From: a virus
DNA length: 64,000 nucleotides
Virus record (IMG/VR): IMGVR_UViG_3300045988_151684
Location: 32,001 to 96,000 of that record
Direction: 5' to 3' (one strand)
The notes below the pieces were generated by a model, which worked only from the letters and a program-made list of their open reading frames with translations, had not been told where the DNA came from and searched no databases. Below are positions 31,761-57,993 of this stretch, piece by piece. Positions within the stretch are counted from its first letter, which is position 1, and every line of letters starts with the position of its first letter. Both the position numbers and the translations under genes were made by a program.

Positions 31761-31772
31761 GGTGGTGACTAT

Positions 31773-33706: not shown

Positions 33707-33725
33707 AATGGAATAAACTCTTTTT

Positions 33726-34801: not shown

Positions 34802-34981
34802 AATAAACCCTCCATAATGTTCTTCCTCCCTTTGTAACTTAATTATACATCTTCTGATTATTTTTGTAAACCTTATTCGGTTAATTTATTTCATGTATTT
34901 AGTAAAACCAATACAATACAAAAGGCCGCACCCCATTCAAGGGTGCGACCTTCTCATGTATACGCTATGCAGTTGTGCACG

Positions 34982-35928: not shown

Positions 35929-35981
35929 TTGCAGACTTTTTGCAGACAAATCCCTCTTTTATGCAGACAATATGCAGACAA
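35929..35981. repeat. Four direct copies of the TGCAGACA octamer in the intergenic region at the left border of element 2
   Basis: ttgcagact / ttgcagacaaa / atgcagacaa / atgcagacaaa read directly from the sequence. Confidence 0.6.
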
Positions 35982-36037
35982 ACTGCTGCTGCATCCTTTA
36001 ACTCAATCTAACGTAATCTAACTCGTTTTTAACTTAT

Positions 36038-36072
36038 GATTAACTCAACGATGAATTGTCGTCGAGTTAATC
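36038..36072. repeat. 14-bp near-perfect inverted repeat GATTAACTCAACGA / TCGTCGAGTTAATC overlapping the endolysin stop
   Basis: Read directly; one mismatch. Confidence 0.5.
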
Positions 36073-36678
36073 ATCATAATAGATATTGGCATCGTACCCG
36101 AAACCGGCCAGATTATCCGTGAACTGATGCATCCGAATGATGTTGTTCGGGTACTCCTCTTTGAGATAATCCCGACAGGCCGTTTCGAACGTGTTGCCCT
36201 CGCCGTAGTTGGCTACCCAATACGGCACATAGTCCGGCAAATCCTCGATACGGATATAATGCGAACTTTCGGCACTCAGCCAACTCCAACTTGCATATAC
36301 ACCATTGTACTGGTGCCCGTAGTTTGTGAGCTGGTTGATAAAGGCGCGGCAGCACTCAGTCACATCACCGTTAAGCATCCGGTTTGACTCTGCATCATAC
36401 CAAATACCCAGCGGCGGTGTTTCGCCTCTCAGGTATTCTTTCAGCCATGCAGCAACCTGATCCGCCTCTGCCACAGCCTCATCATAAGTGCAGGCATGAG
36501 CGAAATAATAAACGCCATACTGCAGGCCATATTCCACAGCGTGATTGATGTGCTCGACAAACATATTGTCGAGGCTGGAGCGCTCGCCGATCTTTAAGAT
36601 AACACCCTCAATGCCGGTATCAGCGAGTGCCTGCCAGTCAATTTCAGTCTGCCATGCGGATATATCAATTACTTTCAT
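36067..36678 (-). CDS. GH25 muramidase endolysin (catalytic domain only)
   Basis: Paralog of 795..1409; same Glyco_hydro_25 motifs. Confidence 0.85.
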   Translation of the reverse strand: MKVIDISAWQTEIDWQALADTGIEGVILKIGERSSLDNMFVEHINHAVEYGLQYGVYYFAHACTYDEAVAEADQVAAWLKEYLRGETPPLGIWYDAESNRMLNGDVTECCRAFINQLTNYGHQYNGVYASWSWLSAESSHYIRIEDLPDYVPYWVANYGEGNTFETACRDYLKEEYPNNIIRMHQFTDNLAGFGYDANIYYDD

Positions 36679-36683
36679 TTTGC

Positions 36684-37127
36684 TTACTTCCTTTCTCGTT
36701 CTTCAGATAGCTGCTTTAACGTATTTTTTAATTTTGCTGGTATTGGCACTCCTGCCTTGCCAGCATTTTCTAATATAGATAGCCCTTCATTGCCTAGAAA
36801 AAACCATGTTACCGCTACACAAATAAGCTGCTGCCCCATAGCATTATCCATGAAGTGAGCTAATGACACTAACAGCAAAATCATTAGTTTTTTGCAAATG
36901 CCTTGAAACCCTCTATGACTGTCAAGAGCCATGTCAGGGTTTACATAAGCCGCCAGCACTCCGCTGATATAGTCAATGACCATTGCGAATATAAGTGCTT
37001 CAAGTACACTGTTCCATGCGCCAAACAGGTATGTTGTCACCATGCCAATTGCTCCTGTCGTCGTCCCCCATAGGGCTTCGACACGAACGGGGACGAGTGA
37101 CCTTATCGCTTCTATTATTACATTCAT
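36684..37127 (-). CDS. Holin (phage_holin_4_1 / phi LC3 family-like)
   Basis: 147 aa with multiple TM helices, directly upstream of the endolysin with a 5-nt gap. Confidence 0.7.
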   Translation of the reverse strand: MNVIIEAIRSLVPVRVEALWGTTTGAIGMVTTYLFGAWNSVLEALIFAMVIDYISGVLAAYVNPDMALDSHRGFQGICKKLMILLLVSLAHFMDNAMGQQLICVAVTWFFLGNEGLSILENAGKAGVPIPAKLKNTLKQLSEERERK

Positions 37128-42000: not shown

Positions 42001-45000
42001 ACGCTCAGGCATGGTCATATTTTTAATACGGCTGAAAAGGTCTTTGATATTCTCTATACCTCTAAGGTCTACTTCATTTCCACCTTGTGCCTGTTTCATA
42101 TCCTCGTCAGTAAGGTATTTATCAATGACTAATATCTTTGTAGCTACGCTTGTTCCAGCACGCTTAAACGTGCATTGTGGAAGTCTTATGGTATTAATGA
42201 GTAAGGCATGTTTTGCTTCATTGTTTCCGTACCATTCATCAAACCGCTTATTAAATGCAGGACCATCAGGGACAATTGCTATTACTCGCCCGCCATCATA
42301 AAGATGTTCAAAGGCTTTTGCCAAGTGTTCCATAGCGGTCTTGCCACCTTTACCGTAAGGAGGATTCATAGCAATACCATCAAACTTATTGGCTTTGGCG
42401 AACTGCTCAAAGGTCGTAGTTTCTACTCTTGAAGTAGTACCGCCTTTTAACCGCATTTTAGCAAGTGTAGCCAGCTGTTCGCTTGGCTCAATAATAGTAT
42501 TCCTTGTCGTAGCACTAAAGTAACGGGATATTGCGCCATGACCTGCGGACGGCTCCAATGCTTTGTTGCCATTCTTCAAGCCTAACCATTCTACCATCTT
42601 AAAGCCTACTGGTTCAGGTGTCGGGTAGTAGTCTACACCTTCACTTGATTTATTACGGCTGTTCTTTTTCGCATTGGTGAAATAATCCGATACGGCTTCA
42701 TCAAATTGGCTAACGCCACTCATTGCTTTGCCATCACGGGCTTTACCGCCTGTACCTTCGGTCTTGCTGTTTGGCAGATAACGTTTCCATGTATCACCGT
42801 CTATTGATTCCATAAAGCCGTTTACGATAGCGTCTCTAAGGTTGCGTGCTTCATAGCCCATAGAAAGATTTTCAGCGGTTGAAGAACGTCCCGCAATCGT
42901 ATCAGCAAAAGCCTGTCTTTCAAAATTCATGCCAGTATTCAGATAGCGGATAATAGCATTAGTTACTACGCCAGTACGATAGATTCGCCCTTCACATTGG
43001 ATTAAGTCCGTTGGTCTTGTTGCCAGCCCCAAGTCTATTAATACCCGCTGGTGTTTTCCTGTCCTGTCGTGCAGGGATATACCTTCTTTAGCAGACGCCC
43101 GCTGACAAAGAAGAACTCTTAAATCATCCTCATCGTCATTAAATTTGTCAACACTATCCTGTCTTAATGATTTTTTCACATCACCATTAAATATGCCGAC
43201 TGTCTTTCCAAGCTCCGACTGAAAACGTTCTATAGGTGACATCAGGTCTTTCATATCCAGCTTTAGCAGTTCAGGATTTTCAGCACAAAAATCCTCATAC
43301 TGCTTGTGAGCCTTAGCCTGATCAGACGGGTCAAGCTCTGCAAAATCATCACTAATAAGCATAAATGGATTTGCAGCTTCATTCTTTTTGAAATCATGGA
43401 ACACTACTACCTGCTTGCCAGCTTTTAAATATTCCTTGATTATTGGGATTGCCGCTTTAGCCTTGACTGCTTCCAGCAGATAACGCCGTCCATTCTTCTT
43501 TAGTTTTTCATCAACCATCTTGGCAATCAGACTGTATTTGTCTCTATCGCCTTTTTCATCGTTGCCATGCAGAATGTCAAGTCCTCTATCAATCTGCTTG
43601 CCTACGCCACCATCAACTAGGATATAGCCACGCTCATAATCGGGCTTAACTTCTAATTTACGGCTGGAAACAGCGCCAATGCTTTTCAGCCATTCATTAA
43701 ATTTTATTTCCATAATGTCTTGGTTAACTTCTGCGTCAGGCTTATTCAGCTTGTTATTGCGCATACGATAACCAAAATGGTCAATCATAAACTGTTCTTG
43801 ACCATCGGTATCATTGTAGTAGCCATGTTTTTCTTTGGCAGGATAATCAAACAAATACCCCTCAGCATATTCTATATTTTTGATGTAGGCAAATGGCGTA
43901 GCTGACAGGAACAGCACTTTATGGCGGTCATTAGCTCCCTTGGCGTCCTCTGCCTGCATAGCTTCATACTCTGCCTTTAGCTTATGGCGTATTCTTTCAT
44001 TTTTAACATGCAGGTCTGCCAGCTGCTGTCTATCACTAGCCGTAAAATCAGATGCTCCGGCTCTGCTGTTCAATGACCTTTCCTGCATTACATTATCATA
44101 ATTTTTAGCTTCGTAATAATCGTTAAAGCCTCTATTATGATAGGTCATGGCACGAACTTTGTTAAGTGCATTAGTATTATTTGCCTGTTCTCCCTGCATT
44201 AGTTTATGAGATTCATCAGTTACGATTAAATCCCAGTCACGTTCTAAAAGGGCGTTGTTTTCACCTACATTTTGATATGAAGTGATAACAATGCCCTCGC
44301 CTTTATCCTTGGTGCTTTTCAGTTTGCTAATATCCAAGCCAAAGAAACCTTTACCCGCATTAATCCAGTCATTCTGTGTTTTATCCTGTGGCGCAATGAT
44401 AAGAATATTCTTTTTGCCACGCTGTACAAAACGCTTGATAACGCCTAAGCCTGTAAAGGTTTTGCCTGTTCCTGTACCGTTGGTAAACATCATACCTTTA
44501 TACGGTTTACCGTTTTTATCGGTGCTGAACAAACGGTTATCAGCTTTTACAACATCATCAACCTGTCCTTTCATCAGGAACGGCATACTAGCTTCTATTT
44601 GCTTTTTACTGCCAGTTTTAAAATTCTTCTTATCGACTTTAGCACCATTTATTGCGCCACGTTTACTGCTTTCATTGACTGGTCGGTTTTCAGCAGATTT
44701 AATACTTTCTGCGCTTCGTCCATCGTCAACCGGCGGTCTGTCGAAACTGTCTCTAATGCTTCTTGATAGGTGTTCAGCTCCGGTGCTATCATTTCCAGCT
44801 GACTGTTTGGTTTCTTCGCTTTGTACTCGGCTATTGCCAGTCTTTCCGCTAGTATCGGTGCTACGTCCGTGAACGCCGCCGCTACGTTGTGACCGTACTT
44901 CTTTTCCAGACGATTGTACACTCTGTCCTCGCCCTGTTCGGGATTCTCCATCTTCATGTACTGACCCCACTGCGTCTTGATTGTCCCCTGCGCTATTTCG

Positions 45001-48000
45001 TTCAGCAGGTTTGTTGGTGCTGTCATAAAGCTCACTGTCCGTTACCTCCTTAGGATTGTTAATTACATTATCTGCGCCAATAAAGCCAAGTTTGAGTAAT
45101 GGTTCAAAATCCTTAGCATTATCTTCACCATATTTTTTAGCAAACTCATTGCGAATATCTTCAAAACCTGCTTTGGGATTCTTTTCCATGACACTGCCAA
45201 CATAGTTAAATGCAGGTATCATTTGAGATTCATCAACCTTGCCGTCAGCAGATTCGAGCATTGACCATACAGGGTGCAGCCATCCACGTATATCATCACC
45301 AAGAGTATCAATCATGGTTTTAGCAAATTCGGTAAAGCCTTTTGCGCCACGTGCTACATACAGTCTGCCTAACTTAAATGCTGGTGCAAGAATGTCGGGG
45401 TCAAATACCGGCAGGGAATTTAATCTGTTGCGGGATTTTTCAAGTGCCTGTTTTAACTCTGCTACCAATTTTGTTTCGGCTTCTTCTGAAATATCAACGC
45501 CAGCAAATTTTTTAGGGTCAATATCCTTCGGCTTATTACCATCAGATTCATCTTTTGATTCTGCTTTAGCTGGTTTTTCCTCAGCCTTTTTCTTTACAGG
45601 TCGAATACCTAAAGCCTTTTCAAGCTCTTTTTCGGCTTCCTCCTGTGTTGAGAAAATCCTGTGTTTCTTTTCTTCTTTTGGCTTTTCATCTTTTACCACG
45701 GGTTCGGATTGAACGGTTTCAGTCCCCTGTGTATGCTCGCTAGATACTTCTCCGCCGTTTCCTTCGGCAACTGTTTCATTACCATCAGTTCCAGCTCGTT
45801 CGGTTCCCTTTTTCTTAGCTTTACTATTGCTAGGCTTTGCAGACGTATTACTATCTTGTTCCTCCTCATGTATTCTTTCCAACAAGTGCTTCCTTATAAG
45901 CACACTATCTGCTAACACACCAGCTCTACTGTACGGATATAAGTCTGGGTTGAATACATTATCGTCTGTATCTTCTATTTCCTTCTCTAACTTGGCTAAT
46001 CTCTCTATTGCTTCTTCATAAGTGATACTTTTTGCCCGATAAGCCTTGATAATCTTGCTTCCTTTTTGGTTAAAACCTTCTCTTATTTCCTCTTTCTCTT
46101 TGTATGAATAGGTTCTGTGCTCATTTTCATTTGTAGCTTTTTCGTTGCCTTCCTCAGCTGGTTCAGCTCCTGCCTTTTTTTCCTGTTCTTCGGCAAGCTC
46201 CTTAGCATAATCAGGTTCGCTCGTATCGGTATCAATTTCTTTTGATTCACCATAGAAATCTTTGACAAAACGGGCTTTATCATCAGAAGTTTCAAAGTCA
46301 AGATTATATACAGGTTTACCATTTTCCAAGTGTCCACGATAGCTTTCAATGTTATAGCCACGGTCGATATAATCCTTTATGTCAGATTCATAGATACCGC
46401 TAACTCCTTTTAGAACAGTATCTTCTTTAGCTGATTTTTCTGCTTTAACTTCCTGTTTATCCTGCTCAGTAACGTTTTCAGCTGCTTCATTCTTGGCAAT
46501 AGCTGGTGTTGCTTCCTCAGCTGGTTTAATTTCCTGCTCTGCTTCATCGTTGGTTTCAGCATTAGCAAGTTTCTTCTCAGCATTGACTATAGCCTTTGGC
46601 ACGCCATGTTCTAGGTCATTGCGCAAATTATCATTAACAGAAATATTCTTTGCTTTCAGCTCATTTAAAAGCTCCTTGCCTAGTTCAATGCGATCAGCCC
46701 GTGACATTTTCTTGACTTCGCTTAACCGTTTTTTATAGTCAAACCTGCTTGGAACATTGCCATACTGACTGTTTCTTATTTGCTCTGCTTCCTTATGGAA
46801 CCCCATTGCGTCCGCTTCATTTGCCATTGCACCTATATCACTCTTGGCTTTTGCTTGACGGAATACAGGCGAATCGTTAAGCCGTGCCATTGGGTCATTG
46901 GTATTTACGGTTGGTGCTTTACGTTTTGGCGTGTCAGGAATAACAATATCAGGAGTTTCAGCAGGTGCGCCATTCGGAACAATAATCCCTGCATTAGGCG
47001 TAGCAGGATTAATTGCAAGCCCAGCTTTCTGCATACGTGCGTCTATTGCTTGACGGTTGGCATTAGCCTGTTGCTGGTTATTGTTTAAATCCTGCTGTAT
47101 GGTGCTGTCTAAAACATTACCGTCTATTGGCTGTCCATTCATAGCTGACTGCATAATAGCACTAGCCGTTGTGGGCAGATTTTGCTGTGTGGCCTGTGCA
47201 GCAGCATATTGCGGGTTATTATTTGCTATGCTGGCTAACTCTTCAAGATTTGCTATTGAAATATGCTGCTGATTATTTTTTATATTGCCAGCCAGTCCCT
47301 GACCATCCGGCAGTGCGGGGAAAGCATTTGGCACATCAAGCTGGATGCCATTCATGATAGCATTTTGAATGTTGCCAGCTGAGGCATTAACTCCCTGCGT
47401 CAGCAGATTGACCATAGTATTGTTCCAGCCATTACTGCGGGCAACTAAAGCAGCCTCAGCAATTTTTCCCTGTGATGCCAGTTTAGTGATATCATCTACT
47501 GTCTGAGCAAATCTGTTGCCATAATTAGTTGAAACTCTTGTCTGTGCTGGTGCCTGCGGATTAATATTGTCAATTTTCGGTGTGGCCGGCGCTCTCCTTG
47601 GTGATGGGGCTTTAGCTGCCATCACGGTCTTCATCATAGCATTAGCAGTTTCCTGCGGATGCATCTTAAATATTGCGCCAATATCACCACCATCAATTGC
47701 ATTTTGCATAGCAGCTGCATGGGCTGCGTCCTCATTTACATCATCACTTACTGGCATATTCATCAACTGAGTAGCCATTTCCATTACTGACTGCTGCTGC
47801 TCCGGCGTCACCTCATTATTGCTAATAAGTGCCTGCGCTGCTTCCATATTCGCCTTTTCCTGCTCTGGTGTCAGGTCATATTGAGATAAATTGAATCCGG
47901 GAACAGTTATATTATAACTGCCACCACTGCCATTTAAAGCTTCACCATGGTCACTGAAATGTAAATGACCGCCGGTAGCATTAGCCGAAGGATTACTATA

Positions 48001-49863
48001 TTCGTCTAAACCATATAATCCATATTCCTTAGCCTTATCTATTAACCAGTTACGCGCATCCGCATTACCCTCAAGAAAATCATCGGCCGTATCAAAAGCC
48101 TGTGCCGAATCATGCCAGCTTTCACCACCGCCATTGCGAGCCATCGACGTTATATAAAAGTGCCGTCCATACTGGTTATAATAGTCACGGTCTAACAGTC
48201 TTAATTTCTGCTCAGTCAAATCAGTTAGATTAGGATTAGAAACTTCACCGCTTATAGTATAGTCTGCTGTCTGTGGAATATCTAAAGCTGGTGACTGCGC
48301 TTTTTCATCAGCAAAATGCCCCATTGCACTATTTACATAGCCAGCTATGGATGGACCATTGCCCTGTGGCGCATCCCAAGGTCTGCCATTTTGGTCAGTA
48401 GCTTCTCCCTCAACCCAGCGCTGAGCATTGTTTGGACCGGAATACCATGCAACTAATGCCCCTTCTGGACCATACTCATCAAAATACTGTCCCATTTTAA
48501 AACGTCCGACTTGACGGTACGCATCATCATCATCCATGCTTGCACCACCAAGACCAGCTTCTTTTGACCATGCATCCCAATTTTCCGGCTGAATCTGATA
48601 AACACCACGCGCACCCGTAGATGATACCGCATCAGGATCACCGCCGCTTTCCTGCATTTCAATAGCGTTGAAAAATGCTTCTTTGTCGCTGCCGCCGTTA
48701 TTAGCATTGCCACGTTGTACCGTAACTGTGCTTTCCGGAACATCAGCAATCTCTGTTTTATTGCCAGCAGTTTCTTCCATGCCATTAAATGGATTATTAG
48801 GATTACTTTTAGCAGCTTCATTATTCATTCTATTAATTCTAGCTTTATAATCCCTATAAGCAGTATGGCCTGCGCCAAACAGACCTAATGGCAGGCTGCC
48901 CATAAAGGCAGCTCGTCCTGCCTGCTGTTCGTCCTCTGTTGGATTAAAGAACGTACCATACGGCTTGCCACTCCATTTATTTTGTGCCTGCTGTTGTGTC
49001 ATTTCCTGAGCATACTCCGAGGCTGCCGAGCCCGGAATATTAACGCCATAGCCGGCAATCTTGCCTGCTCTGCCACCCCGTTTGAATATCGGCTTAAAGC
49101 CTTTACCTTCAAGGATAGGTCCCATAATACCCTGAGTAAGCATATCCATTGGCAGTTCTTCTTGTATCATGCTATTCATACGACGAGCAATTTCATCATC
49201 AGAAAGTCCCTCGTCTTTTAAATCAGCATACATATCGCCGGCATTAGTTGCTGCTTCCAGTGGTCCCGTACCTAAGGCCCATTTTGCTGCTGAAGCTCCT
49301 GCCTGCTGTCCTGCCTTTGACATAATAGCCTTGCCTATCTGCTTAGCTCCAGCACGGGCAGCCATTGAACCAATACCACGTGCAGCAAGTGCGCCAGCAC
49401 CGCCAAATGGTGCTGCGGCACTAGCAGCCGCAAACGGAATAGCCGAACCTGCCATCTGACTAAAGTCAGCCAGCAGACCTCGTTTGTCTGTCAAATAATC
49501 AGCACTGGTTAATCTGTCAATTATACTCATATCCTGATATTTATCAAGCGTGCCAGATTCAGCAAAATTCTTAGCTGCTTTATCATTAAGATATTCACCA
49601 TTATTTATAAATGAATCGCCCCATTTACCGAGCGTACCCTCATCTGAATTGCGGATTGAATCAACATAAGAACTTTCCCGCCCTGCCTCGTCAAAACGTT
49701 TCAGTTGTGCTCCTATATAATCAAGCCCGCCACCAATTACGCTTTCGGCTCCGCCTGCTAAGTTATCCATTATGGTTGAAAACAATCCCTTTTCTTTTGG
49801 TGCAGCAGCTGATACGCCAGCTACTACAGGATTGCTTATTGCATGTTCTTTTAAAAATGACAT
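39064..49863 (-). CDS. Giant polyvalent virion/ejection-type protein (3,599 aa) with lytic transglycosylase, M15-like peptidase, low-complexity linkers, SNF2-family helicase, N6-adenine MTase and an HExxH domain (DarB-like anti-restriction architecture)
   Basis: Motifs read in the translation: AIEMQESGG..GVYQIQP (SLT); SWHDSAQAFDTAD..GGHLHFSDHG (M15); GTGKTFTG, DESH, LSATPF, QCEGRIYRTG (SF2/SNF2); EPSAGHGA and NPPYGKGG (MTase I/IV); VYHEVFHAV (zincin). Confidence 0.85.
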   Translation of the reverse strand: MSFLKEHAISNPVVAGVSAAAPKEKGLFSTIMDNLAGGAESVIGGGLDYIGAQLKRFDEAGRESSYVDSIRNSDEGTLGKWGDSFINNGEYLNDKAAKNFAESGTLDKYQDMSIIDRLTSADYLTDKRGLLADFSQMAGSAIPFAAASAAAPFGGAGALAARGIGSMAARAGAKQIGKAIMSKAGQQAGASAAKWALGTGPLEAATNAGDMYADLKDEGLSDDEIARRMNSMIQEELPMDMLTQGIMGPILEGKGFKPIFKRGGRAGKIAGYGVNIPGSAASEYAQEMTQQQAQNKWSGKPYGTFFNPTEDEQQAGRAAFMGSLPLGLFGAGHTAYRDYKARINRMNNEAAKSNPNNPFNGMEETAGNKTEIADVPESTVTVQRGNANNGGSDKEAFFNAIEMQESGGDPDAVSSTGARGVYQIQPENWDAWSKEAGLGGASMDDDDAYRQVGRFKMGQYFDEYGPEGALVAWYSGPNNAQRWVEGEATDQNGRPWDAPQGNGPSIAGYVNSAMGHFADEKAQSPALDIPQTADYTISGEVSNPNLTDLTEQKLRLLDRDYYNQYGRHFYITSMARNGGGESWHDSAQAFDTADDFLEGNADARNWLIDKAKEYGLYGLDEYSNPSANATGGHLHFSDHGEALNGSGGSYNITVPGFNLSQYDLTPEQEKANMEAAQALISNNEVTPEQQQSVMEMATQLMNMPVSDDVNEDAAHAAAMQNAIDGGDIGAIFKMHPQETANAMMKTVMAAKAPSPRRAPATPKIDNINPQAPAQTRVSTNYGNRFAQTVDDITKLASQGKIAEAALVARSNGWNNTMVNLLTQGVNASAGNIQNAIMNGIQLDVPNAFPALPDGQGLAGNIKNNQQHISIANLEELASIANNNPQYAAAQATQQNLPTTASAIMQSAMNGQPIDGNVLDSTIQQDLNNNQQQANANRQAIDARMQKAGLAINPATPNAGIIVPNGAPAETPDIVIPDTPKRKAPTVNTNDPMARLNDSPVFRQAKAKSDIGAMANEADAMGFHKEAEQIRNSQYGNVPSRFDYKKRLSEVKKMSRADRIELGKELLNELKAKNISVNDNLRNDLEHGVPKAIVNAEKKLANAETNDEAEQEIKPAEEATPAIAKNEAAENVTEQDKQEVKAEKSAKEDTVLKGVSGIYESDIKDYIDRGYNIESYRGHLENGKPVYNLDFETSDDKARFVKDFYGESKEIDTDTSEPDYAKELAEEQEKKAGAEPAEEGNEKATNENEHRTYSYKEKEEIREGFNQKGSKIIKAYRAKSITYEEAIERLAKLEKEIEDTDDNVFNPDLYPYSRAGVLADSVLIRKHLLERIHEEEQDSNTSAKPSNSKAKKKGTERAGTDGNETVAEGNGGEVSSEHTQGTETVQSEPVVKDEKPKEEKKHRIFSTQEEAEKELEKALGIRPVKKKAEEKPAKAESKDESDGNKPKDIDPKKFAGVDISEEAETKLVAELKQALEKSRNRLNSLPVFDPDILAPAFKLGRLYVARGAKGFTEFAKTMIDTLGDDIRGWLHPVWSMLESADGKVDESQMIPAFNYVGSVMEKNPKAGFEDIRNEFAKKYGEDNAKDFEPLLKLGFIGADNVINNPKEVTDSELYDSTNKPAERNSAGDNQDAVGSVHEDGESRTGRGQSVQSSGKEVRSQRSGGVHGRSTDTSGKTGNSRVQSEETKQSAGNDSTGAEHLSRSIRDSFDRPPVDDGRSAESIKSAENRPVNESSKRGAINGAKVDKKNFKTGSKKQIEASMPFLMKGQVDDVVKADNRLFSTDKNGKPYKGMMFTNGTGTGKTFTGLGVIKRFVQRGKKNILIIAPQDKTQNDWINAGKGFFGLDISKLKSTKDKGEGIVITSYQNVGENNALLERDWDLIVTDESHKLMQGEQANNTNALNKVRAMTYHNRGFNDYYEAKNYDNVMQERSLNSRAGASDFTASDRQQLADLHVKNERIRHKLKAEYEAMQAEDAKGANDRHKVLFLSATPFAYIKNIEYAEGYLFDYPAKEKHGYYNDTDGQEQFMIDHFGYRMRNNKLNKPDAEVNQDIMEIKFNEWLKSIGAVSSRKLEVKPDYERGYILVDGGVGKQIDRGLDILHGNDEKGDRDKYSLIAKMVDEKLKKNGRRYLLEAVKAKAAIPIIKEYLKAGKQVVVFHDFKKNEAANPFMLISDDFAELDPSDQAKAHKQYEDFCAENPELLKLDMKDLMSPIERFQSELGKTVGIFNGDVKKSLRQDSVDKFNDDEDDLRVLLCQRASAKEGISLHDRTGKHQRVLIDLGLATRPTDLIQCEGRIYRTGVVTNAIIRYLNTGMNFERQAFADTIAGRSSTAENLSMGYEARNLRDAIVNGFMESIDGDTWKRYLPNSKTEGTGGKARDGKAMSGVSQFDEAVSDYFTNAKKNSRNKSSEGVDYYPTPEPVGFKMVEWLGLKNGNKALEPSAGHGAISRYFSATTRNTIIEPSEQLATLAKMRLKGGTTSRVETTTFEQFAKANKFDGIAMNPPYGKGGKTAMEHLAKAFEHLYDGGRVIAIVPDGPAFNKRFDEWYGNNEAKHALLINTIRLPQCTFKRAGTSVATKILVIDKYLTDEDMKQAQGGNEVDLRGIENIKDLFSRIKNMTMPERIGADIKNHFTNTVNKKSINNSYMALVDDVKLMNDDRLYAIAFDYQGRRNVKFGGYGFATESLRNKFERTANKYLAEKANNPNAKVPTTESKPAENTESEQYFTLGTHEDTRPNVDKLYSTARPTEYLSDKYRSISNLAKEHNGHYSKYANNSFIFENENDRNEFVKEANALLAESNYSISPADNVKEQISEQAKAQAMGRLRTEIAEALPTAKNIRDDGSSLYFTMFNKAEVEIQIADELNVDNGDADKARKAHGLEAGVKIKVNGKEYTVGSKAVIQLALNGDEGSVYHEVFHAVWDMVLTDKEKSAIIKAYKEDARKAGKDVIEYAADRYRDWFLARNKGVTKDPNGNSFKFGKLWKKFREMVDKLRSIIAKTEEVNRIFKDIESGKVWERELDNALKVTDNDIKQMKQELAGKLKPDMTDDELDQAFLGTKIVRELRSKFNFDMNGFPKEAYEYSRRFNRLGEEFERYVSDNRQNNVKNRAIKDGGTPARYDKRTPDNADRRSEVEVEKGYTGGVRELNARNQQPEKNVSYEVQSVLYLNDVKAIHDYEYDNNKLSVSRSDKDGFSSTQKYSISEMQTETEPAGSLNRIKRSMSELGKIATEKNVEIRKKKERDIDNLNMLDMWVKTVRQVSKKNNAVKYFYNLARKAYDEQEKLRAHYGEAMKRFNQYTKDKKDLDDVSQALLQGDMEGKEYKVKDLKEMGLSDNAIRAYKLVRLRLGSAYKLINDARMQVIERNKILHRSQLDDFKKAHFLKDSDILSIINKGNGKILVTYRGAKIYEHTGEMVSPEALSKLKADKDVCVIDFEPVTDDLGTTLWRVDYTERPKPLTKLTGYVPHFFHKFMVYQKYTNEDGEEILVTRGSGRSLKEAAKLANGYAKENPDSEYVIRAQGFEYDEEYNNVVVGDRDFARMTSQIHKNTDMSLNEARKFLRESAGAKIKGRHRFFGNMKKRKAPRGLKKMCRGCWSITSMHPHVM
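41080..41160 (-). other. Domain: zincin-like HExxH motif
   Basis: GSVYHEVFHAVWD encoded at ~41105..41135. Confidence 0.4.
42150..42650 (-). other. Domain: N6-adenine DNA methyltransferase (gamma-class motif order)
   Basis: Motif I LEPSAGHGA upstream of motif IV NPPYGKGG (~42350). Confidence 0.75.
42950..44500 (-). other. Domain: SF2 helicase (SNF2-like)
   Basis: Walker A GTGKT (~44465), DESH (~44210), LSATP, motif VI QCEGRIYRTG (~42990). Confidence 0.8.
47900..48180 (-). other. Domain: M15/Hedgehog-type zinc peptidase-like
   Basis: SWHDSAQAFDTAD (about 48106) and GGHLHFSDHG (about 47945). Confidence 0.55.
48400..48720 (-). other. Domain: family-1 lytic transglycosylase (SLT)
   Basis: EMQESGG...ARGVYQIQ motif encoded around 48640..48670. 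Confidence 0.75.
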
Positions 49864-49884: not shown

Positions 49885-51675
49885 TTAATCACCATATCGG
49901 TTTCTCATGTCTTGAATAATAGCAGGATCTATACGTGCCAAAAGCTCGTCATTGCCTGTTTTTATATCATCCCAATAAATTTTGGTATTTGGATTTGCTG
50001 GATCCCGATTATATTCTCTTAAAAAATTCCCTAGATACTGCAATTCATTATCCTCCCAAGCATTATCATCTTCATCATGCCCAGGAATACCAATAGCTTT
50101 TTCTTTAAACCCATTAAAATCTATATCGCCACTAAGATATTGCTGTATATACTGGTCATATTTGGCTTTATGACCTTCTTCCTTAGCTGTTGCTGCTGAT
50201 GATTTAGCACCTCTTTGGTACTTTCCACTTGCTAAATCTTCGGCGTGCCATTTATCTCTTGCTTGTATATCCTCAGCCTTACGTTTATTTGCTGCCTGCT
50301 CTTTCATAACCGCCGTCTGATAACCAAAATTCTGACCGCGGGCCGTAAGATTCCCCTTCATTTTATCCGTTGGACTTATTGCTTTGTTGAATGTCTGCGT
50401 ACTGCCAGCACCATAACCGCTCGGGTCATAATAAGAAACATACTTCTTATCACCTGTATCAGTTTCATGCATAGTGTAATTACGCTTTGTTTTATCAAAA
50501 GCATTGATAATGTCTTTCGGATCAGCGCCGGATGCTACCAGCATAGCCAGCATACTTCCAGCTTGAGGATTGCTTGCCAGGCTTTCAATGAATTTACCCT
50601 GTAGCATTTTCTTAGTCTTTTCTGCTTCCTGCTTATCCATCTTGGCCAACGCCGCCTCAACCTGATTTTGTGGCAACCCCTGGTTAATCAAAGCACGGCG
50701 CAAATTATCCCGATAATCCGGTGAAGCTTTTTCGCTAGCAATATCTTTCATAGCCAGTTGCTTGGCTGTTGCGTCTAACACAGTGTTGTAATCTGCACCC
50801 TTGCCATAGACATCGTATATATCCTGCATGGTAATAGTATCTGGATTACTATAGGCTTGTTTTGCAGCATCCTGAACATCCTTAACACTGAACGTATAAG
50901 GATTAGTATTGGCAGCATTATTTCCCGCCGGAAGCTGATTTTGTGCTGCTCCGTTTTGTCTTATTGGCTGTGCTCCAGCTAATTCATTAGCTACTTCCTG
51001 TAATGTCTGTGGCGATGCATTGCCATTTCTGTACAGCTCACTTATTTCTGCTTTGGTAGGCGCATAGTTAAACGGCTTTAGTCCTAATGCTGCCTGAGCT
51101 ATTTCTTCTTTGGTGGGTGGCTTCTTATATGATATATCCAGCTCATTTTTTGGCATTTGATAATTGCCAAATCTGTAATTTGGTGACATTTCCGCCTCAG
51201 CAGCAGCCTTGGCAGCAGCTAAACTGTTGACATTCCCCCCTACTTTTGACATATCTATATGCTTTCTGTCACCAATCTTACGGAACTCATCGGCCATAGT
51301 ATGTGCCGTATTTTGTATATCACGGAATTTTTTTACATCATCGGAATCTTCACCGTAACCATTATTAAGTAAATATTGTGCATCATTCTGTGCCTGCCAC
51401 CAGCGACGTTTAGCATTTAATAAACCTTGCTGTGGTGTAAGACCTACATAATCACCCGCATTAGACTGATTCTTTAATGCCTCTGCTGCTTCTGCTCTAT
51501 GCTGATCAGCATACTTATCAAGCATATCCTGCTGATACCTCTTGATAGCGTCACCAGCTTTATCTATGCCACGCTGATTATAATTTTGTGCCCAGGCATT
51601 ACCTAGTGCTGCCCCTAAAGCACTGCCAAGCTCCGGTGAAAAAACATCATCTCTTATATCACTCCACCAGCCCAT
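49885..51675 (-). CDS. Virion internal or structural protein (596 aa), Gln/Ala/Asn-rich
   Basis: ORF immediately upstream of the giant protein. Confidence 0.4.
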   Translation of the reverse strand: MGWWSDIRDDVFSPELGSALGAALGNAWAQNYNQRGIDKAGDAIKRYQQDMLDKYADQHRAEAAEALKNQSNAGDYVGLTPQQGLLNAKRRWWQAQNDAQYLLNNGYGEDSDDVKKFRDIQNTAHTMADEFRKIGDRKHIDMSKVGGNVNSLAAAKAAAEAEMSPNYRFGNYQMPKNELDISYKKPPTKEEIAQAALGLKPFNYAPTKAEISELYRNGNASPQTLQEVANELAGAQPIRQNGAAQNQLPAGNNAANTNPYTFSVKDVQDAAKQAYSNPDTITMQDIYDVYGKGADYNTVLDATAKQLAMKDIASEKASPDYRDNLRRALINQGLPQNQVEAALAKMDKQEAEKTKKMLQGKFIESLASNPQAGSMLAMLVASGADPKDIINAFDKTKRNYTMHETDTGDKKYVSYYDPSGYGAGSTQTFNKAISPTDKMKGNLTARGQNFGYQTAVMKEQAANKRKAEDIQARDKWHAEDLASGKYQRGAKSSAATAKEEGHKAKYDQYIQQYLSGDIDFNGFKEKAIGIPGHDEDDNAWEDNELQYLGNFLREYNRDPANPNTKIYWDDIKTGNDELLARIDPAIIQDMRNRYGD

Positions 51676-53183
51676 TAATCATCACCCCATATCTCGCTGC
51701 TGCCACCATTGGCAATGAAGCCATCCGCAATGTAGTTGTTTGCGCCGTCAACCTGCAAATCATAGACCCTGCGTTCACCGCTATAGACAACACTTTGAAC
51801 TTTGCCAACATTTTTAAGCTCTGTACCAATCGTAAGGTAACTTAGCATTACATACTCGCCATCAGGCTTCATAAAGCTCTGTGTAAGTGTGGTACTCGTA
51901 TGACCGTCTTTTGCAATGACACAATAAACGTCATTGTATCTAGGTTCCATAGTCTTTACTACCTTAGCAGTAGTGCCATCAGCCGTCATGACTTCATCAC
52001 CTGCATGAACATGCTTAATATCCCGCTTACTGCCATCAGCCATGTCAATCATAGTTCCCTCCGGGAAACAAGCCCAGCCCATAGCAGCACCACCTACAGC
52101 TGACCCTAGCAAGTTGCCAAAGAAACTGCCGCCTGATGTATGCTGATTTTGTGTTGATGTACTAGTTCCTTTTCCGGCAGCTGCGGCCAACGCTCCAGTA
52201 TTGGCACCATTGAGACCAAGCGAAGTCTGCCACAAATTCATTGCTGGCGTCTGCGCTGCTTCCTGCGCTGTTGCCGCTGCCGTAATAGGTGATGTAGCTG
52301 AATCAATAAGATTGCCATACAAACCTTGGTTAGCACTGTTATTGCCCTGCGTATTGCTTAGCTGCTGCTGCGTTATGGCTCCTGCCTGGCCAAGAGCACC
52401 ACTATTAACACCGTACTGCCGGCTTATAATATCACCTAAGCTGTTCGTTGCATTGTTAGTATTTTGATTTTGCTGCTGGGCAAGATTGGCTGCCTGATTA
52501 ATATTGTTTTGATACTGTGATGCCACACTGTCGCTGGCATTTTTCTCAATGTCATTAAGTGCACTCGATGTTACGGACGAATTTAGTACGCCTCGATTGC
52601 CTAAATTGTTAATCGCTTTGCCAACCGTATTATTAACCGCTGAGTTGATACTTTTTTCCATATTCTGCTGATATGCAGAAGGCAAATTGCCATTTTCTAA
52701 GCTGCTAAGCGTACTATTTGCTTTATTTGCCGAATCAACATAGCTTCCCGCAAGATTTCCATACTGATTTGATGTACTATTAGCCAGTTTATAATTCTGA
52801 TTTACTAAATCACCAAGCGTGCCGTTAGCGTTGTTAGTTGCTGAATTATTACTGCCAATAAGCCCTGCCAGCCCATTTGTCGCATTGCCTATCTGATTTT
52901 GTGCATTTTTGTTCATGGCGTTATAGTCGACCTGAACCGTACCTAGAGAATCTCTAAGCAAATTCATAGCATAATCATTAAGCGTTATGGCATTTGGCAT
53001 AACAGCATCAATATATTTGCCCTGCTGCTTCATCAGATACTTTTCTTCCTCTGATGGAGTATAGGTACTGGTATTAGTAACGGTTGTCGAATGTCCTTTG
53101 AAGTAGCAACGATGGAAATATTTTCTGTATACTTCGCTGTGTAAATTATCTTGCGGTCTATCAAACCACATCTGCTGAAACAT
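51675..53183 (-). CDS. Asn/Gln/Ser-rich low-complexity protein with a C-terminal Hint (intein/BIL-like) domain
   Basis: C-terminal ~130 aa: CFPEGTMIDMADGS...VYDLQVDGANNYIADGFIANGG; long N/Q/S-rich N-terminal region. Confidence 0.65.
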   Translation of the reverse strand: MFQQMWFDRPQDNLHSEVYRKYFHRCYFKGHSTTVTNTSTYTPSEEEKYLMKQQGKYIDAVMPNAITLNDYAMNLLRDSLGTVQVDYNAMNKNAQNQIGNATNGLAGLIGSNNSATNNANGTLGDLVNQNYKLANSTSNQYGNLAGSYVDSANKANSTLSSLENGNLPSAYQQNMEKSINSAVNNTVGKAINNLGNRGVLNSSVTSSALNDIEKNASDSVASQYQNNINQAANLAQQQNQNTNNATNSLGDIISRQYGVNSGALGQAGAITQQQLSNTQGNNSANQGLYGNLIDSATSPITAAATAQEAAQTPAMNLWQTSLGLNGANTGALAAAAGKGTSTSTQNQHTSGGSFFGNLLGSAVGGAAMGWACFPEGTMIDMADGSKRDIKHVHAGDEVMTADGTTAKVVKTMEPRYNDVYCVIAKDGHTSTTLTQSFMKPDGEYVMLSYLTIGTELKNVGKVQSVVYSGERRVYDLQVDGANNYIADGFIANGGSSEIWGDD

Positions 53184-54985: not shown

Positions 54986-55222
54986 TTATGATAAAGTACC
55001 AGCTACCACATTTAAGGTAGCGTGGCTGCCAAGCGCCCTTGCGTACACGATACCGCTGCTTGAGTACGTCTTGGCACACCCACCGTGCAAGATAAAGCCA
55101 GTATCTGCCTTGGCTGTATCACTTACTTCTATAGACTGCCCAGGCATGACATAAAAGACACCACTACTCTCTGCTATCTTTGTAAAATCACTCGATAACT
55201 TATACTGTGACATAAAATACAC
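54986..55222 (-). CDS. Hypothetical protein (78 aa)
   Basis: ORF only. Confidence 0.3.
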   Translation of the reverse strand: MYFMSQYKLSSDFTKIAESSGVFYVMPGQSIEVSDTAKADTGFILHGGCAKTYSSSGIVYARALGSHATLNVVAGTLS

Positions 55223-55375
55223 CTCTCTTTTACACTAAAAAAGCACCTGCCCAAGCGCAAGTGCATATTTTTTCTTTGTATCTACTTTATAAAGCCACAA
55301 AATAGCTTACATTGATATTTTACTACTATATATAGCCTAAAAACTTTTAAAGCTCAAAAAAAAATAAAAAAAGAC

Positions 55376-55404
55376 TTGACATTATATACTGACTACAGTA
55401 TACT
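55376..55404 (+). promoter_or_regulatory. Near-consensus sigma70-like promoter TTGACA-17-TATACT driving the plus-strand moron cassette
   Basis: Read directly from the sequence. Confidence 0.55.
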
Positions 55405-55437
55405 TAAATTATCAAATACAGAAGGGAGTTGATAAGG

Positions 55438-55554
55438 TTGCCGACAAGAAGGGAACGGCAAGCACAAAAAAGAGCTGAGTTAATGCAAGAAATTCAGACG
55501 GTTTGTGCTATTATCTCAACCATAATAGCAATTCTGTCATTCTTGCGATAATCT
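55438..55554 (+). CDS. 38-aa peptide (TTG start) with a basic N-terminus and hydrophobic C-terminus
   Basis: GGGAG RBS 9 nt upstream; MPTRRERQAQKRAELMQEIQTVCAIISTIIAILSFLR; followed by a 12-bp stem-loop (55566..55598). Confidence 0.3.
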
Positions 55555-55629
55555 CAGCTTGTGGCTTACAGGAGGGCGTTAATCTCCCTCTTGTAAGTAA
55601 ATTATATCAAATTTGAGGAGGACAAAGCA

Positions 55630-55719
55630 ATGGAACAAAGGGCAAAATTACTTTTTTGGCTAACAATTATTAACATGTTCCTAATTATTGGTTTAGCAAT
55701 CAAAATTTGGAGCAAATAA
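55630..55719 (+). CDS. 29-aa hydrophobic peptide (single TM)
   Basis: Perfect RBS GAGGAGG; MEQRAKLLFWLTIINMFLIIGLAIKIWSK. Confidence 0.4.
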   Translation: MEQRAKLLFWLTIINMFLIIGLAIKIWSK

Positions 55720-55728
55720 GGTGATAAT

Positions 55729-55929
55729 ATGGGAAAAACCAAAGCGCAAATTCGTGCTACAGAAAAATTCAACAAGAACAACTATGAACGGCTTAGTTGC
55801 TCAATCCCTATTGGGGAGCGTGAAGTTATAAAAGGTTTTGCGCAAGAACATGGTTTGTCTCTTGCACAATATATACGACAAGCCTGCTACGAAAAAGCTG
55901 GTAAGAAAGCACCAGCGATGAAAAAATAA
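55729..55929 (+). CDS. Ribbon-helix-helix (CopG/ParD-like) protein
   Basis: ERLSCSIPIGEREVIKGFAQEHGLSLAQYIRQA resembles RHH antitoxin/regulator domains. Confidence 0.5.
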   Translation: MGKTKAQIRATEKFNKNNYERLSCSIPIGEREVIKGFAQEHGLSLAQYIRQACYEKAGKKAPAMKK

Positions 55930-55977
55930 AGTGTGGTTTCCCTCCCTTCACGGGGAGGGATTAAGGAGGTAATTAAC

Positions 55978-56238
55978 ATGAAAAAGCAGGAATTTGAAGT
56001 ACGGGAAATCCACACTGATGGGCATGTGTCCTACTTCTGTTTTTTAGCCAAATCAATTAGGGGCGCTAAGATTTTGGCTAAAAAATACAGAGGTAGCCAA
56101 AATTCTGACTTGCAAGTCATGTGGCGTGACGTGCAAGTCGCAAGTATGTACTCCAATAAGTGGCAAGGGGGGCGTGATGATGAAATTGGTACTGAGGCGT
56201 ATATAAAAGAGCGCCTTGGTAATGGCTTGCCTTGGTAA
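55978..56238 (+). CDS. Hypothetical protein (~86 aa) downstream of the RHH gene
   Basis: Start MKKQEF after a GGAGG RBS; no known motif. Confidence 0.4.
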   Translation: MKKQEFEVREIHTDGHVSYFCFLAKSIRGAKILAKKYRGSQNSDLQVMWRDVQVASMYSNKWQGGRDDEIGTEAYIKERLGNGLPW

Positions 56239-56251
56239 TGGCGCAAGCAGT

Positions 56252-56289
56252 AAAAAAAAAGAGAGGGCGAAAAGCCCTCTCTTTTTTAA
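56252..56289. terminator. Bidirectional intrinsic terminator
   Basis: AAAAAAAAA-GAGAGGGC-gaaaa-GCCCTCTC-TTTTTT. Confidence 0.7.
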
Positions 56290-57254: not shown

Positions 57255-57277
57255 TCCTCCTTGACTTACATACGCCA

Positions 57278-57670
57278 ATGACGTATACTAACGATATGAA
57301 TACTATTTCCATTCCACAAGTTGTTGCTGAAACAACCCCATATATCAAAGCTGTAAATGCTATATGGGATGAAGAAACTCAAATAGAATTTAAAAATTAC
57401 ATAGGTGCTAATCCATATAAAGGTGATATTATTCCTCATACTGGTGGCATAAGAAAAATTCGCTGGCAAAGTGGAGGTCATGGCAAGCGTGGCGGTGCTA
57501 GAATAATTTATTACCTTTATAACGAAAATCACCCGATTTATCTTCTATTTGCTTATCCTAAAAATGTACAGATCAACTTGTCAGAAACTGAAACAAAACT
57601 TTTGAAAAGTGCCGTTGCTAAATTAAAAGAAGTTTTTAGAACAAAGGAGGAATCATCGCATGAAAAATGA
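57278..57670 (+). CDS. HigB-like (RelE-superfamily 'plasmid killer') toxin
   Basis: IRKIRWQSGGHGKRGGARIIYY motif; toxin-first gene order with a downstream HTH. Confidence 0.6.
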   Translation: MTYTNDMNTISIPQVVAETTPYIKAVNAIWDEETQIEFKNYIGANPYKGDIIPHTGGIRKIRWQSGGHGKRGGARIIYYLYNENHPIYLLFAYPKNVQINLSETETKLLKSAVAKLKEVFRTKEESSHEK

Positions 57671-57962
57671 AATCTCACCTGCTGTTTCAGCTATTCTTAA
57701 TGGTCTAAACGAAGCCGTGCTAGACGCTCAAGGTTCTTCCGTTACAGGTTTACGCAAGACTGTCATTCAAACAGTTAAGCCTAAAGAAATTCGAGAAGAA
57801 CTCAATATGTCTCAACAAGAATTTTCAAAAGCCTACGGCATCCCTCTTGCTACTCTGCGCAATTGGGAGCAAGGCAGGCGCAAGTTAGATACAACCGCAA
57901 TAGCGTACCTAAAAGCTATTATGCGCTTTCCAAAAGAAGTTATGGTTGCACAAACAAATTAA
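57660..57962 (+). CDS. HigA-like HTH XRE antitoxin
   Basis: LNMSQQEFSKAYGIPLATLRNWEQGRRK helix-turn-helix; overlaps the toxin stop. Confidence 0.6.
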   Translation: MKNEISPAVSAILNGLNEAVLDAQGSSVTGLRKTVIQTVKPKEIREELNMSQQEFSKAYGIPLATLRNWEQGRRKLDTTAIAYLKAIMRFPKEVMVAQTN

Positions 57963-57993
57963 CCTTTAGCCGTGGCGTTTATGCTACGGCTTT

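Follow-up and report, generated by a model that had tools for sequence, protein, structure and literature searches.

The cassette at positions 55376-56289 of the DNA analyzed here is best read as a two-peptide type I toxin-antitoxin module, similar to yonT/SR6 of the Bacillus phage SPbeta, that is controlled by an Aca14-like autorepressor of the ribbon-helix-helix (RHH) class and to which an orphan gene for a protein of 86 amino acids (aa) has been added. We give this reading a probability of about 55%. The DNA, referred to as the window, is a stretch of 64,000 nucleotides (nt) covering positions 32,001 to 96,000 of IMG/VR virus record IMGVR_UViG_3300045988_151684. The cassette belongs to a temperate phage of a Gram-positive gut bacterium, and the Gram-positive host is indicated by a Phage_holin_4_1 holin and a GH25 lysin carried by the same element. 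A preliminary description of this region had proposed an autonomous promoter-to-terminator accessory cassette with a layout like that of toxin-antitoxin loci. The elements that it listed are all found within 55376-56289 on the strand opposite to the structural genes, and the autonomy of the cassette is borne out by its anatomy and by its conservation in related contigs. However, the cassette is not the single unit that had been supposed, and is instead a mosaic of exchangeable modules. The toxin-antitoxin interpretation is retained for the two-peptide half, which resembles the yonT/SR6 type and includes a predicted antisense RNA gene that had been overlooked, but not for the pairing of the RHH gene with the 86-aa gene. 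Three features were not in the preliminary description: the putative operator (55385-55402), the opposite-strand extended -10 element (55601-55609), and a hairpin (56031-56096) within the 86-aa open reading frame (ORF). The main parts of the cassette are the following.

55376 to 55404, plus strand: sigma-70/sigmaA-type promoter, with TTGACA (55376-55381), a 17-nt spacer and TATACT (55399-55404); 11 of 12 matches.
55385 to 55402, unstranded: putative palindromic operator TATACT-GACTAC-AGTATA, 18 base pairs (bp), overlapping the spacer and the -10 element.
55438 to 55551, plus strand: peptide 1, MPTRRERQAQKRAELMQEIQTVCAIISTIIAILSFLR, 37 aa (40 aa from TTG 55429), with a basic N-terminus and a hydrophobic C-terminus.
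55464 to 55596, minus strand: predicted SR6-like cis-antisense RNA of about 130 nt, with a 5' hairpin complementary to 55564-55598, a stem at 55472-55561, and UUUUUU.
55564 to 55598, plus strand: GC-rich hairpin between the peptides (GGAGGG and CCCTCT arms), 13 bp, -21.4 kcal/mol, z = -6.2.
55601 to 55609, minus strand: extended -10 element TGATATAAT (reading ATTATATCA on the plus strand), pointing at the hairpin and peptide 1.
55630 to 55719, plus strand: peptide 2, MEQRAKLLFWLTIINMFLIIGLAIKIWSK, 29 aa, with one transmembrane segment and GAGGAGG 8 nt upstream.
55729 to 55929, plus strand: 66-aa RHH regulator with an N-terminal helix, PHROG 13890.
55978 to 56238, plus strand: gene for the 86-aa orphan protein, with AAGGAGG 7 nt upstream.

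The two peptides resemble type I toxins in size and composition. Both are shorter than 60 aa and have a membrane-spanning and a charged segment. The maximum Kyte-Doolittle hydrophobicity of peptide 1 is 2.7 over 15 residues and that of peptide 2 is 2.35, and each has a net charge of +3. Peptide 1 had been given a length of 38 aa; the ORF is present, but it has 40 codons if it starts at TTG 55429 or 37 aa if it starts at TTG 55438, and the latter has the better spacing to GGGAG. Peptide 2 starts with ATG, and its length of 29 aa and strong ribosome-binding site agree with the earlier account. Among the five copies of the window lineage the peptide module is nearly invariant, and the two substitutions in peptide 2 are both at third codon positions and synonymous. 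The persistence of the ORF pair in loci that lack nucleotide similarity to the window indicates that both peptides are genuine genes, as had been proposed. The window peptides have no match in PHROG, Pfam or NCBIfam. A signaling role for peptide 2 (arbitrium, SHP or PrgQ-like) was discarded because there is no receptor gene, and a leaderless bacteriocin was discarded because neither a transporter nor an immunity gene is present and the composition is unusual for this class.

The same operon organization is found in phages unrelated to that of the window. A scan with the promoter-operator pattern identified an unrelated phage (L028) and a metagenomic contig (L039) that have no nucleotide similarity to the window beyond the promoter. 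In both of them the operator-promoter comes first, and a Shine-Dalgarno (SD) site and a GTG start lead into a peptide of 32-39 aa that is charged and hydrophobic. After a GC-rich hairpin there is a second peptide, which has 29-41 aa and a single membrane segment, and then a small regulator whose SD site overlaps the preceding stop codon. The 29-aa counterpart of peptide 2 in L028 ends in SK, as peptide 2 does; in other loci the counterparts have 28-51 aa. The regulator of L028 and L039 belongs to PHROG 2277, and its N-terminal motif A-x-x-K-[WFY]-x-x-K-N is common to the RHH proteins and Aca14. With this regulator as bait, 62 IMG/VR loci and 95 GenBank phage records were recovered, the latter from phages of Streptococcus, Listeria, Clostridium and Lactobacillus. 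Of 37 non-redundant loci from Firmicutes phages, about 30 share the layout. Both hydrophobic peptides are present with a fixed spacing in 22 of the 37, and one of them in seven more. Measured back from the regulator, the distance is about 340 nt to the palindrome, about 300 nt to the start of peptide 1 and about 100-150 nt to the start of peptide 2; the values for the window are 344, 300 and 99.

In most of these phages the peptide module is alone with its regulator and adjoins the lysis genes and the attachment site. In Clostridium tetani phage phiCT453A it consists of genes 58-60, between the amidase gene and attR. In Listeria phage B025 (about 22850-23470) it lies between ply and attP on the strand opposite to the annotated gp29 and gp30, and in this well-formed operon the operator-promoter is followed by peptides of 33 and 45 aa, with a hairpin between them, and by a regulator of 69 aa; the gp29/gp30 annotation is probably on the wrong strand. 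The cassette had been said to match no family. This is correct for curated function libraries, but the peptide module has a counterpart in SPbeta and dozens of unannotated relatives, and the regulators fall in PHROG 13890 and PHROG 2277. Homologues of PHROG 2277 are also found after a DnaC-like loader gene or an IbrA/IbrB pair, in Streptococcus mutans phage M102 (ORF24) and Streptococcus thermophilus phage CHPC1148 (gene 0029). These two phages lack the peptides, showing that the protein family is broader than the peptide module. Literature searches found no description of the two-peptide operon in Listeria, Streptococcus or Clostridium phages, which is not proof of absence.

A promoter signal directed at peptide 1 from the opposite strand is conserved in the family. 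The hairpin between the peptides, described before as a 12-bp stem-loop, has an equivalent in 27 of 28 family loci, with a mean of -16.2 kcal/mol versus -7.8 kcal/mol in shuffled sequences. ATTATAnCA stands 3-35 nt beyond it on the sense strand; read on the other strand this is TGnTATAAT, the extended -10 consensus. Exact copies of TGnTATAAT in antisense orientation occur in 17 of the 37 non-redundant loci, compared to 0.71 in shuffled sequences (maximum 4) and none of 37 on the sense strand. With up to one mismatch the numbers are 32 of 37, 12.1 (maximum 21) and 9 of 37, respectively. Sibling cassettes with acidic payloads lack the element. An alternative in which ATTATAnCA is a half-site for a regulator on the sense strand was judged less likely, since all eight specified positions fit the promoter consensus and SPbeta uses this sequence as the sr6 promoter.

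Between about 55596 and 55458 the minus strand has a predicted fold of -47.3 kcal/mol (z = -6.0), which consists of a 5' hairpin and a long stem followed by six U residues, the complement of the A-run at 55466-55471. This A-run and the inverted repeat at 55472-55561 were first seen as a long-range structure in the message of peptide 1, and both are explained by a terminator of the predicted antisense RNA. The sense leaders are also structured (z = -5.3 in the window; further values are -4.2 and -4.3).

A similar arrangement is known from SPbeta, where YonT is a proven protein toxin and yonT/SR6 a proven type I system of Bacillus subtilis (Reif, Loser and Brantl 2018, PMC5848175). SR6 is a 100-nt antisense RNA made from an extended -10 promoter; it overlaps the 3' end of yonT and the 5' end of yoyJ, and it promotes RNase III-dependent decay of the yonT mRNA, which is polycistronic and includes a third small gene, yonU (PMC5848175). 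In a published survey, homologues of yonT/SR6 were found in Bacillus only (PMC5848175). The order in SPbeta is the yonT stop codon, an annotated stem-loop, 11 nt, ATTATAACA and then yoyJ, and the SR6 region folds in the same layout as the predicted antisense RNA of the window, with two hairpins and a U-tract. The phiCT453A-type subfamily of peptide 1 has weak similarity to YonT (BLASTP E = 8e-4; hhalign 47%, E = 1.9e-4, residues 1-25), and a tblastn search with it does not retrieve SPbeta.

The promoter of the cassette carries a palindrome that is probably the binding site of the RHH protein. The promoter is the top-scoring site within 4 kb and is conserved in every related cassette, including those of a second phage type, while promoter-like sites in general are not enriched in the region (10 found versus 9.1 expected). 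The operator-bearing promoter occurs once in the window, with 0.02 occurrences expected, and the same type of palindrome is found in front of more than 25 unrelated two-peptide operons. Sibling cassettes with another RHH N-terminus have TGTACT-N6-AGTACA, in which both half-sites are altered symmetrically (G-to-A / C-to-T). The window form, TATACT-N6-AGTATA, goes with an N-terminus of the type MGKTKAQIRATEKF... and R21, and the sibling form goes with MKISPARYRANNKY... and Q21. In the alignment of siblings a recombination breakpoint lies inside the RHH gene at about 55790-55805, showing that the operator is inherited together with roughly the first 25 residues of the regulator. The symmetric operator change together with the swapped N-terminus constitutes a natural specificity pair for DNA recognition by RHH proteins with N-terminal helices. 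In five relatives of the RHH protein (L147-L149, L153 and L154), an identical consensus promoter, with TGTACT-acatgc-AGTACA, occurs twice, before the operon and right after the RHH gene, where the second copy fronts the next operon. L152 has the downstream copy only, and L150 and L151 have the upstream copy only. Among the payloads of this subgroup (L147-L154) are a cysteine-rich protein of 144 aa, which is conserved, and proteins of 78-111 aa that are strongly acidic.

The assignment of the 66-aa protein to the RHH class, made in the preliminary description, agrees with profile, solved-structure and AlphaFold2 results. Proteins of this class are recognized, by profile or by fold, from a strand-helix-helix core with a G-x-S/T turn. 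The sub-threshold profile matches of the 66-aa protein are exclusively to RHH families (NikA-like at 20.7 bits, DUF6290 and RelB), and a relative (L037) reaches the TacA1 cut-off and also matches Arc, CopG and FitA models. The best match among solved structures is AmrZ (E = 0.005). AlphaFold2 predicts a helix at residues 5-22, an extended segment at 23-29, and helices at 30-40 and 45-56, with a predicted local distance difference test score (pLDDT) of 73. The top Foldseek matches of this model are RHH proteins at 1.3-1.7 A, with E values above 1, which are not significant. In the 3' half of the gene 22 of 28 variable sites are at third codon positions. A scan of species-representative genomes gave no match to the RHH protein.

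The RHH protein is a likely autorepressor of its own operon, and it resembles Aca14. Aca14 is an RHH protein of 66-67 aa with a helical N-terminal extension that represses its own and a neighboring operon, and the associated AT-rich inverted repeat lies over the -10 element (2026 preprint). A comparison of the window RHH protein with Aca14 by hhalign gave a probability of 54% and E = 1.3e-4 over 42 ungapped columns with 21% identity, a marginal match that is in register, and a single BLASTP comparison gave E = 0.006. The layout is also of the Aca type: a small regulator is encoded within the operon, and an inverted repeat, the presumed binding site, covers the -10 element of a strong promoter.

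The distribution of the modules in related phages indicates that the promoter, RHH gene and terminator form an old scaffold into which young payloads have been inserted. These three parts are kept in about 20 related phage contigs. Alignment of the sibling cassettes shows two conserved blocks, the promoter region (55201-55416) and the segment from the 3' half of the RHH gene (about 55790) through the terminator. The middle is variable, and siblings have different sets of acidic proteins, 66-108 aa long, where the window has the two peptides. In the relatives L015-L022, whose RHH protein is 64% identical, the promoter and the terminator enclose only a gene for an acidic protein of 90 aa and the RHH gene, with the terminator directly after the latter. 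Genes for 117-aa and 78-aa proteins take the place of the 86-aa gene after the RHH gene in L023-L026, and a 185-aa acidic protein does so in other relatives. Nucleotide diversity is 0.10 in the 3' half of the RHH gene versus 0.004 in the 86-aa gene, a 27-fold difference that supports the distinction between scaffold and payloads. The payload proteins matched no family in scans of Pfam, PHROGs, NCBIfam and PADLOC, and a nucleotide search of GenBank phages with the cassette gave no match.

The 86-aa gene is real. It has a strong SD site, all three of its variable sites are at third codon positions, and it has one homologue. On sequence evidence it is an independent addition that was placed between the RHH gene and the terminator and has spread recently. 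The exact protein is found on at least 23 metagenomic contigs. Most of these are siblings with an SU10-type capsid protein and a giant protein of 3599-4830 aa; two represent the second phage type, and there the cassette is among early genes near methylase, pentapeptide-repeat and ArdA genes. Searches of 5.8 billion proteins and of 1.84 billion cluster representatives returned nothing beyond the cluster of the protein itself and a single remote homologue, P0011 (39% identity, E = 2.5e-8); a third match was discarded as a repeat artefact. P0011 is the first gene product of a separate promoter-to-terminator cassette, which also encodes a 60-aa partner but lacks an RHH gene. The 86-aa protein has no Pfam, PHROG, NCBIfam or PADLOC family, and no known toxin superfamily was found among these. 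An AlphaFold2 model from the single sequence had a pLDDT of 48, which is too poor for a fold search. Two hairpins are associated with the gene.

55939 to 55960, plus strand: hairpin with TCCCTCCC and GGGAGGGA arms, directly 5' of the SD site of the 86-aa gene; -17.0 kcal/mol, z = -1.7, not significant alone.
56031 to 56096, plus strand: long imperfect hairpin of about 27 bp inside the 86-aa ORF; -29.9 kcal/mol, z = -5.8.

The hairpin at 56031-56096 is absent from the P0011 gene and identical in all copies, and it therefore gives no covariation information. It has microRNA-like Rfam matches on both strands that are far below the gathering score; the other Rfam matches in the cassette are by chance or terminator-like. 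The junction at 55939-55960 is re-used before the 78-aa gene in L025. In the window and in the cassettes of L002, L005, L010, L015, L023 and L025, a GC-rich hairpin directly 5' of a strong SD site precedes almost every payload gene. These junctions may be elements for mRNA processing or stability, or preferred recombination joints. An integron-like (attC) interpretation was dropped, since the hairpin sequences differ and always stand directly before a ribosome-binding site.

Several observations weigh against a type I toxin module. Every family member except SPbeta is known from sequence alone, and PHROG 2277 regulators are also found in virulent phages that lack the peptides. Peptide 1 has a TTG start and a modest SD site, and its five copies are without substitutions and so give no coding signal. 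No sequence similarity of the window peptides to YonT or YoyJ was detected, though no direct comparison with YonT was made, and the charged part of peptide 1 is N-terminal, the reverse of YonT. The predicted antisense RNA stops short of the ribosome-binding site of peptide 2, while SR6 reaches that of yoyJ. A heuristic for antisense terminators found one in 24 of 27 loci versus about 15 of 29 shuffled sequences; it recovered the 100-nt length of SR6 but is weakly discriminating across the family and too permissive as evidence. SPbeta has no comparable palindrome and has YonU as its third gene, where the window has an operator and a DNA-binding regulator. We know of no classical type I system that includes a dedicated protein repressor. 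Finally, in sibling phages the same promoter slot holds acidic proteins that resemble anti-defense proteins, and together with the Aca-like behavior of the RHH relatives this suggests that the payload could be for counter-defense rather than a toxin.

A counter-defense operon of the Acr-Aca kind is one of two alternatives that we consider unlikely but worth weighing. The RHH protein would then be an Aca14-type regulator of a strong early promoter, and the peptides and 86-aa protein would inhibit immunity or take over the host. This would fit the variation of the payload around a conserved small regulator, the size and N-terminal helix that the RHH protein shares with Aca14 along with the weak in-register match, and the repeated operator-promoter before two successive operons in the RHH relatives, as reported for Aca14. 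The payloads of siblings are strongly acidic orphans, and strongly acidic small proteins are typical of DNA mimics. The neighborhood of the cassette in the second phage type, with its methylase, pentapeptide-repeat and ArdA genes, is in addition suggestive, though only that. However, no payload has a match in the four family collections (no search aimed at anti-defense proteins was made), and the peptide module is mostly alone with its regulator, beside lysis genes and the attachment site. The peptide module also brings an antisense promoter and a hairpin, which are shared with a proven toxin-antitoxin locus and are not a feature of acr operons.

The peptides may also be non-toxic membrane peptides for lysogenic conversion, an explanation that we consider improbable to a similar degree. 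They would block the entry of superinfecting DNA or modulate the timing of lysis at a low level set by the repressor. Both are small and of the single-pass or amphipathic membrane type, and an autoregulated promoter of constitutive type would suit expression in the lysogen. The module is usually between the endolysin gene and the attachment site, which is where temperate Gram-positive phages keep their conversion genes. On the other hand, a conserved antisense promoter at peptide 1 and heavy folding of the mRNA are hallmarks of genes that are nearly silenced, and the architecture matches that of yonT/SR6. Neither counter-defense nor conversion accounts for the conserved antisense promoter aimed at peptide 1.

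It is very unlikely that the RHH and 86-aa proteins form a type II toxin-antitoxin pair, with a CopG/ParD-like antitoxin, a new toxin, and the peptides as leader ORFs. An antitoxin-like RHH gene is indeed followed by a small gene of toxin size, the operator is palindromic, there are weak matches of the RHH protein to RelB, DUF6290 and TacA-type antitoxin models, and a neighboring slot holds HigBA or RelB-YoeB modules. However, the two genes are not inherited as a pair, and this interpretation was rejected. The 86-aa gene is absent from L015-L022 and replaced in L023-L026 while the RHH gene is retained, the sole remote homologue heads a cassette without an RHH gene, a 48-nt gap with a hairpin separates the two genes, and the 86-aa protein matches no toxin family. 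The 27-fold difference in diversity also indicates that the genes have different histories. Least credible is that the peptide ORFs are untranslated and that the 320-nt stretch serves as a structured leader or attenuator RNA by which the RHH and 86-aa genes are controlled: the strong structure (z = -5.3), the TTG start of peptide 1 and its five near-invariant copies without a coding signal would agree with this, but two ORFs of the same size, order and hydrophobicity with SD sites persist where nucleotide similarity does not, peptide 2 has a perfect ribosome-binding site and synonymous changes only, and YonT is a proven protein toxin.

A type I module under an RHH autorepressor would be restrained at three levels. 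An RHH dimer would bind the 18-bp palindrome and repress its own operon, as Aca14 and regulators of the Arc/AmrZ type do. Peptide 1 would be a small YonT-like membrane toxin. An antisense RNA of about 130 nt would start near 55594 on the minus strand and stop at the stem and U6 near 55465, and by pairing with the 3' two-thirds of the peptide 1 message it would cause degradation or block its use. Strong folding of the mRNA would be the third layer of restraint. Peptide 2 may be the partner of peptide 1, or may itself be a membrane toxin, though a weaker one. The 86-aa gene would be co-transcribed and therefore co-regulated. The likely benefit to the phage would be retention of the prophage, killing of the host under stress or superinfection, or both.

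A wider proposal is more tentative, and we consider it possible rather than probable. The operon of two peptides, an antisense RNA and a small repressor could represent an unrecognized, phylum-wide family of phage toxins that extends yonT/SR6, has three stacked controls, and sits on an Aca-type chassis that is interchangeable between toxin and anti-defense genes. Its members would be in phages of Listeria, Streptococcus, Lactobacillus, C. tetani and gut Clostridia, and the N-terminal DNA-reading helix (PHROG 2277, PHROG 13890 and Aca14) would travel with the operator in recombination. Prophage type I toxin-antitoxin systems and autoregulated accessory operons of phages are known already. Compared to the literature found, what appears to be new is how widely the module occurs outside Bacillus, that it is coupled to an operator and repressor of its own, that it is exchanged with acidic payloads on the same chassis, and that the operator and the regulator N-terminus are swapped jointly. 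If the type I interpretation is correct, dozens of hypothetical mini-genes beside lysis genes, as in B025, phiCT453A, Lactobacillus reuteri phage LR2 and prophages of group B streptococci, would be candidate type I modules. The YonT/SR6 type, reported from Bacillus only, would then extend across Firmicutes phages, and this would be a toxin module with a DNA-binding repressor dedicated to it as an extra control. The presence of either a toxin module or acidic anti-defense-like genes on one chassis would also bear on searches for counter-defense genes that rely on guilt by association with Aca.

The cassette is bordered by terminators on both sides.

55243 to 55264, minus strand: terminator-like hairpin at the left border, with an A-run before it, 8 pairs and then TTTTTT; -14.1 kcal/mol, z = -4.2.
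56255 to 56287, both strands: two-way intrinsic terminator; -22.7 kcal/mol (plus strand) and -21.3 kcal/mol (minus strand), z = -6.7 and -6.0.

The second of these corresponds to the strong bidirectional terminator recognized previously. It has an A-run on one side and a T-run on the other, and it ends both the cassette and the converging tail-gene transcript. The left-border hairpin is within the block conserved in sibling phages and is about 20 nt upstream of the start of a 78-aa gene on the minus strand. The late genes on the minus strand are thus interrupted by terminators on either side of the cassette, and late transcription across the region would need read-through or restart. Such read-through transcripts would run antisense to the entire cassette.

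Other genes of the window show further mobile or unusual features. A second promoter-to-terminator cassette is located 1 kb to the right (57261-57991, plus strand), with a TTGACT-17-TATACT promoter and a terminator at 57968-57991. It encodes a 130-aa RelE-family protein (HigB-like, 57278-57670) and an overlapping 100-aa HTH_3 protein (HigA-like, 57660-57962). Sibling phages have a RelB/YoeB pair in this position, showing that it is a second exchangeable slot among the tail-fiber genes. Some siblings (L009, L015-L022) have a radical-SAM gene among the tail-fiber genes beside the cassette, and an IS110-family transposase is inserted in the tail region of L022 (3807-5018). The giant ORF of 3599 aa (39064-49863, minus strand) is 3599-4830 aa long in siblings, and its relatives carry SLT (lytic transglycosylase), ResIII/helicase and winged-helix domains. 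A 502-aa protein of the structural region (51675-53183, minus strand) has a Hom_end_hint (intein/Hint) match in the precomputed annotation of sibling contigs. To the left of the structural genes, 29170-37127 is the junction of the two mobile elements recognized in the preliminary description. The genes there encode a rolling-circle-type Rep (29170-30270), a helix-turn-helix protein, a tyrosine integrase (32445-33551), an IrrE-like M78 peptidase, the GH25 lysin (36067-36678) and the holin (36684-37127). There is no closely related isolated phage, and tblastn with a tail protein gave only remote matches to Achromobacter phages.

Among known systems the cassette can be compared with two kinds of toxin-antitoxin loci besides yonT/SR6, and with Aca14 operons. 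Type I modules of Clostridioides difficile prophages (CD0977.1-RCd11 and others) have toxins of 30-56 aa and cis-antisense RNA antitoxins and are proposed to function in prophage maintenance (PMC6563280). They have in common with the window a single hydrophobic segment with a charged tail, a cis-antisense RNA and a prophage location. However, they are single toxin genes without a protein regulator or second peptide, and the likeness is by description and not by sequence comparison. The omega-epsilon-zeta locus and other type II systems regulated by RHH proteins likewise have a separate small RHH repressor, a palindromic or repeated operator and a toxin module. In the window the products are membrane peptides and not enzymes, there is no protein antitoxin, the regulator follows the two peptide genes and is not first, and the partner genes of the RHH gene are not conserved.

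The regulatory part of the cassette is most like Aca14 and the peptide part most like yonT/SR6. As in the Aca14 system, the regulator has about 66 aa and its RHH core is preceded by an N-terminal helix, and the strong promoter has an AT-rich inverted repeat across its -10 element. The regulator gene lies inside the operon that it presumably controls, downstream of variable small orphan payloads, and in RHH relatives the repeat is also found in front of the neighboring operon. The regulator gene is last in the relatives L015-L022, while in the window the 86-aa gene follows it. The repeats differ (TGTATATG-taag-CATATACA for Aca14, TATACT-N6-AGTATA in the window), the hosts are Pasteurellaceae for Aca14 and Firmicutes here, the window cassette has no known anti-CRISPR gene (no scan aimed at anti-defense genes was made), and its payload resembles a toxin module. 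Like yonT/SR6, this module has a small toxin-like ORF first, a GC-rich stem-loop after the stop codon and an extended -10 element on the opposite strand a few nt further on. The antisense RNA, which is predicted for the window, has the complement of the stem-loop at its start, and its end is a stem and U-tract that lie within the toxin-like ORF. Next is another small membrane ORF, of 29 aa in the window and 83 aa for YoyJ, and then a third small gene, and both loci are located in prophages.

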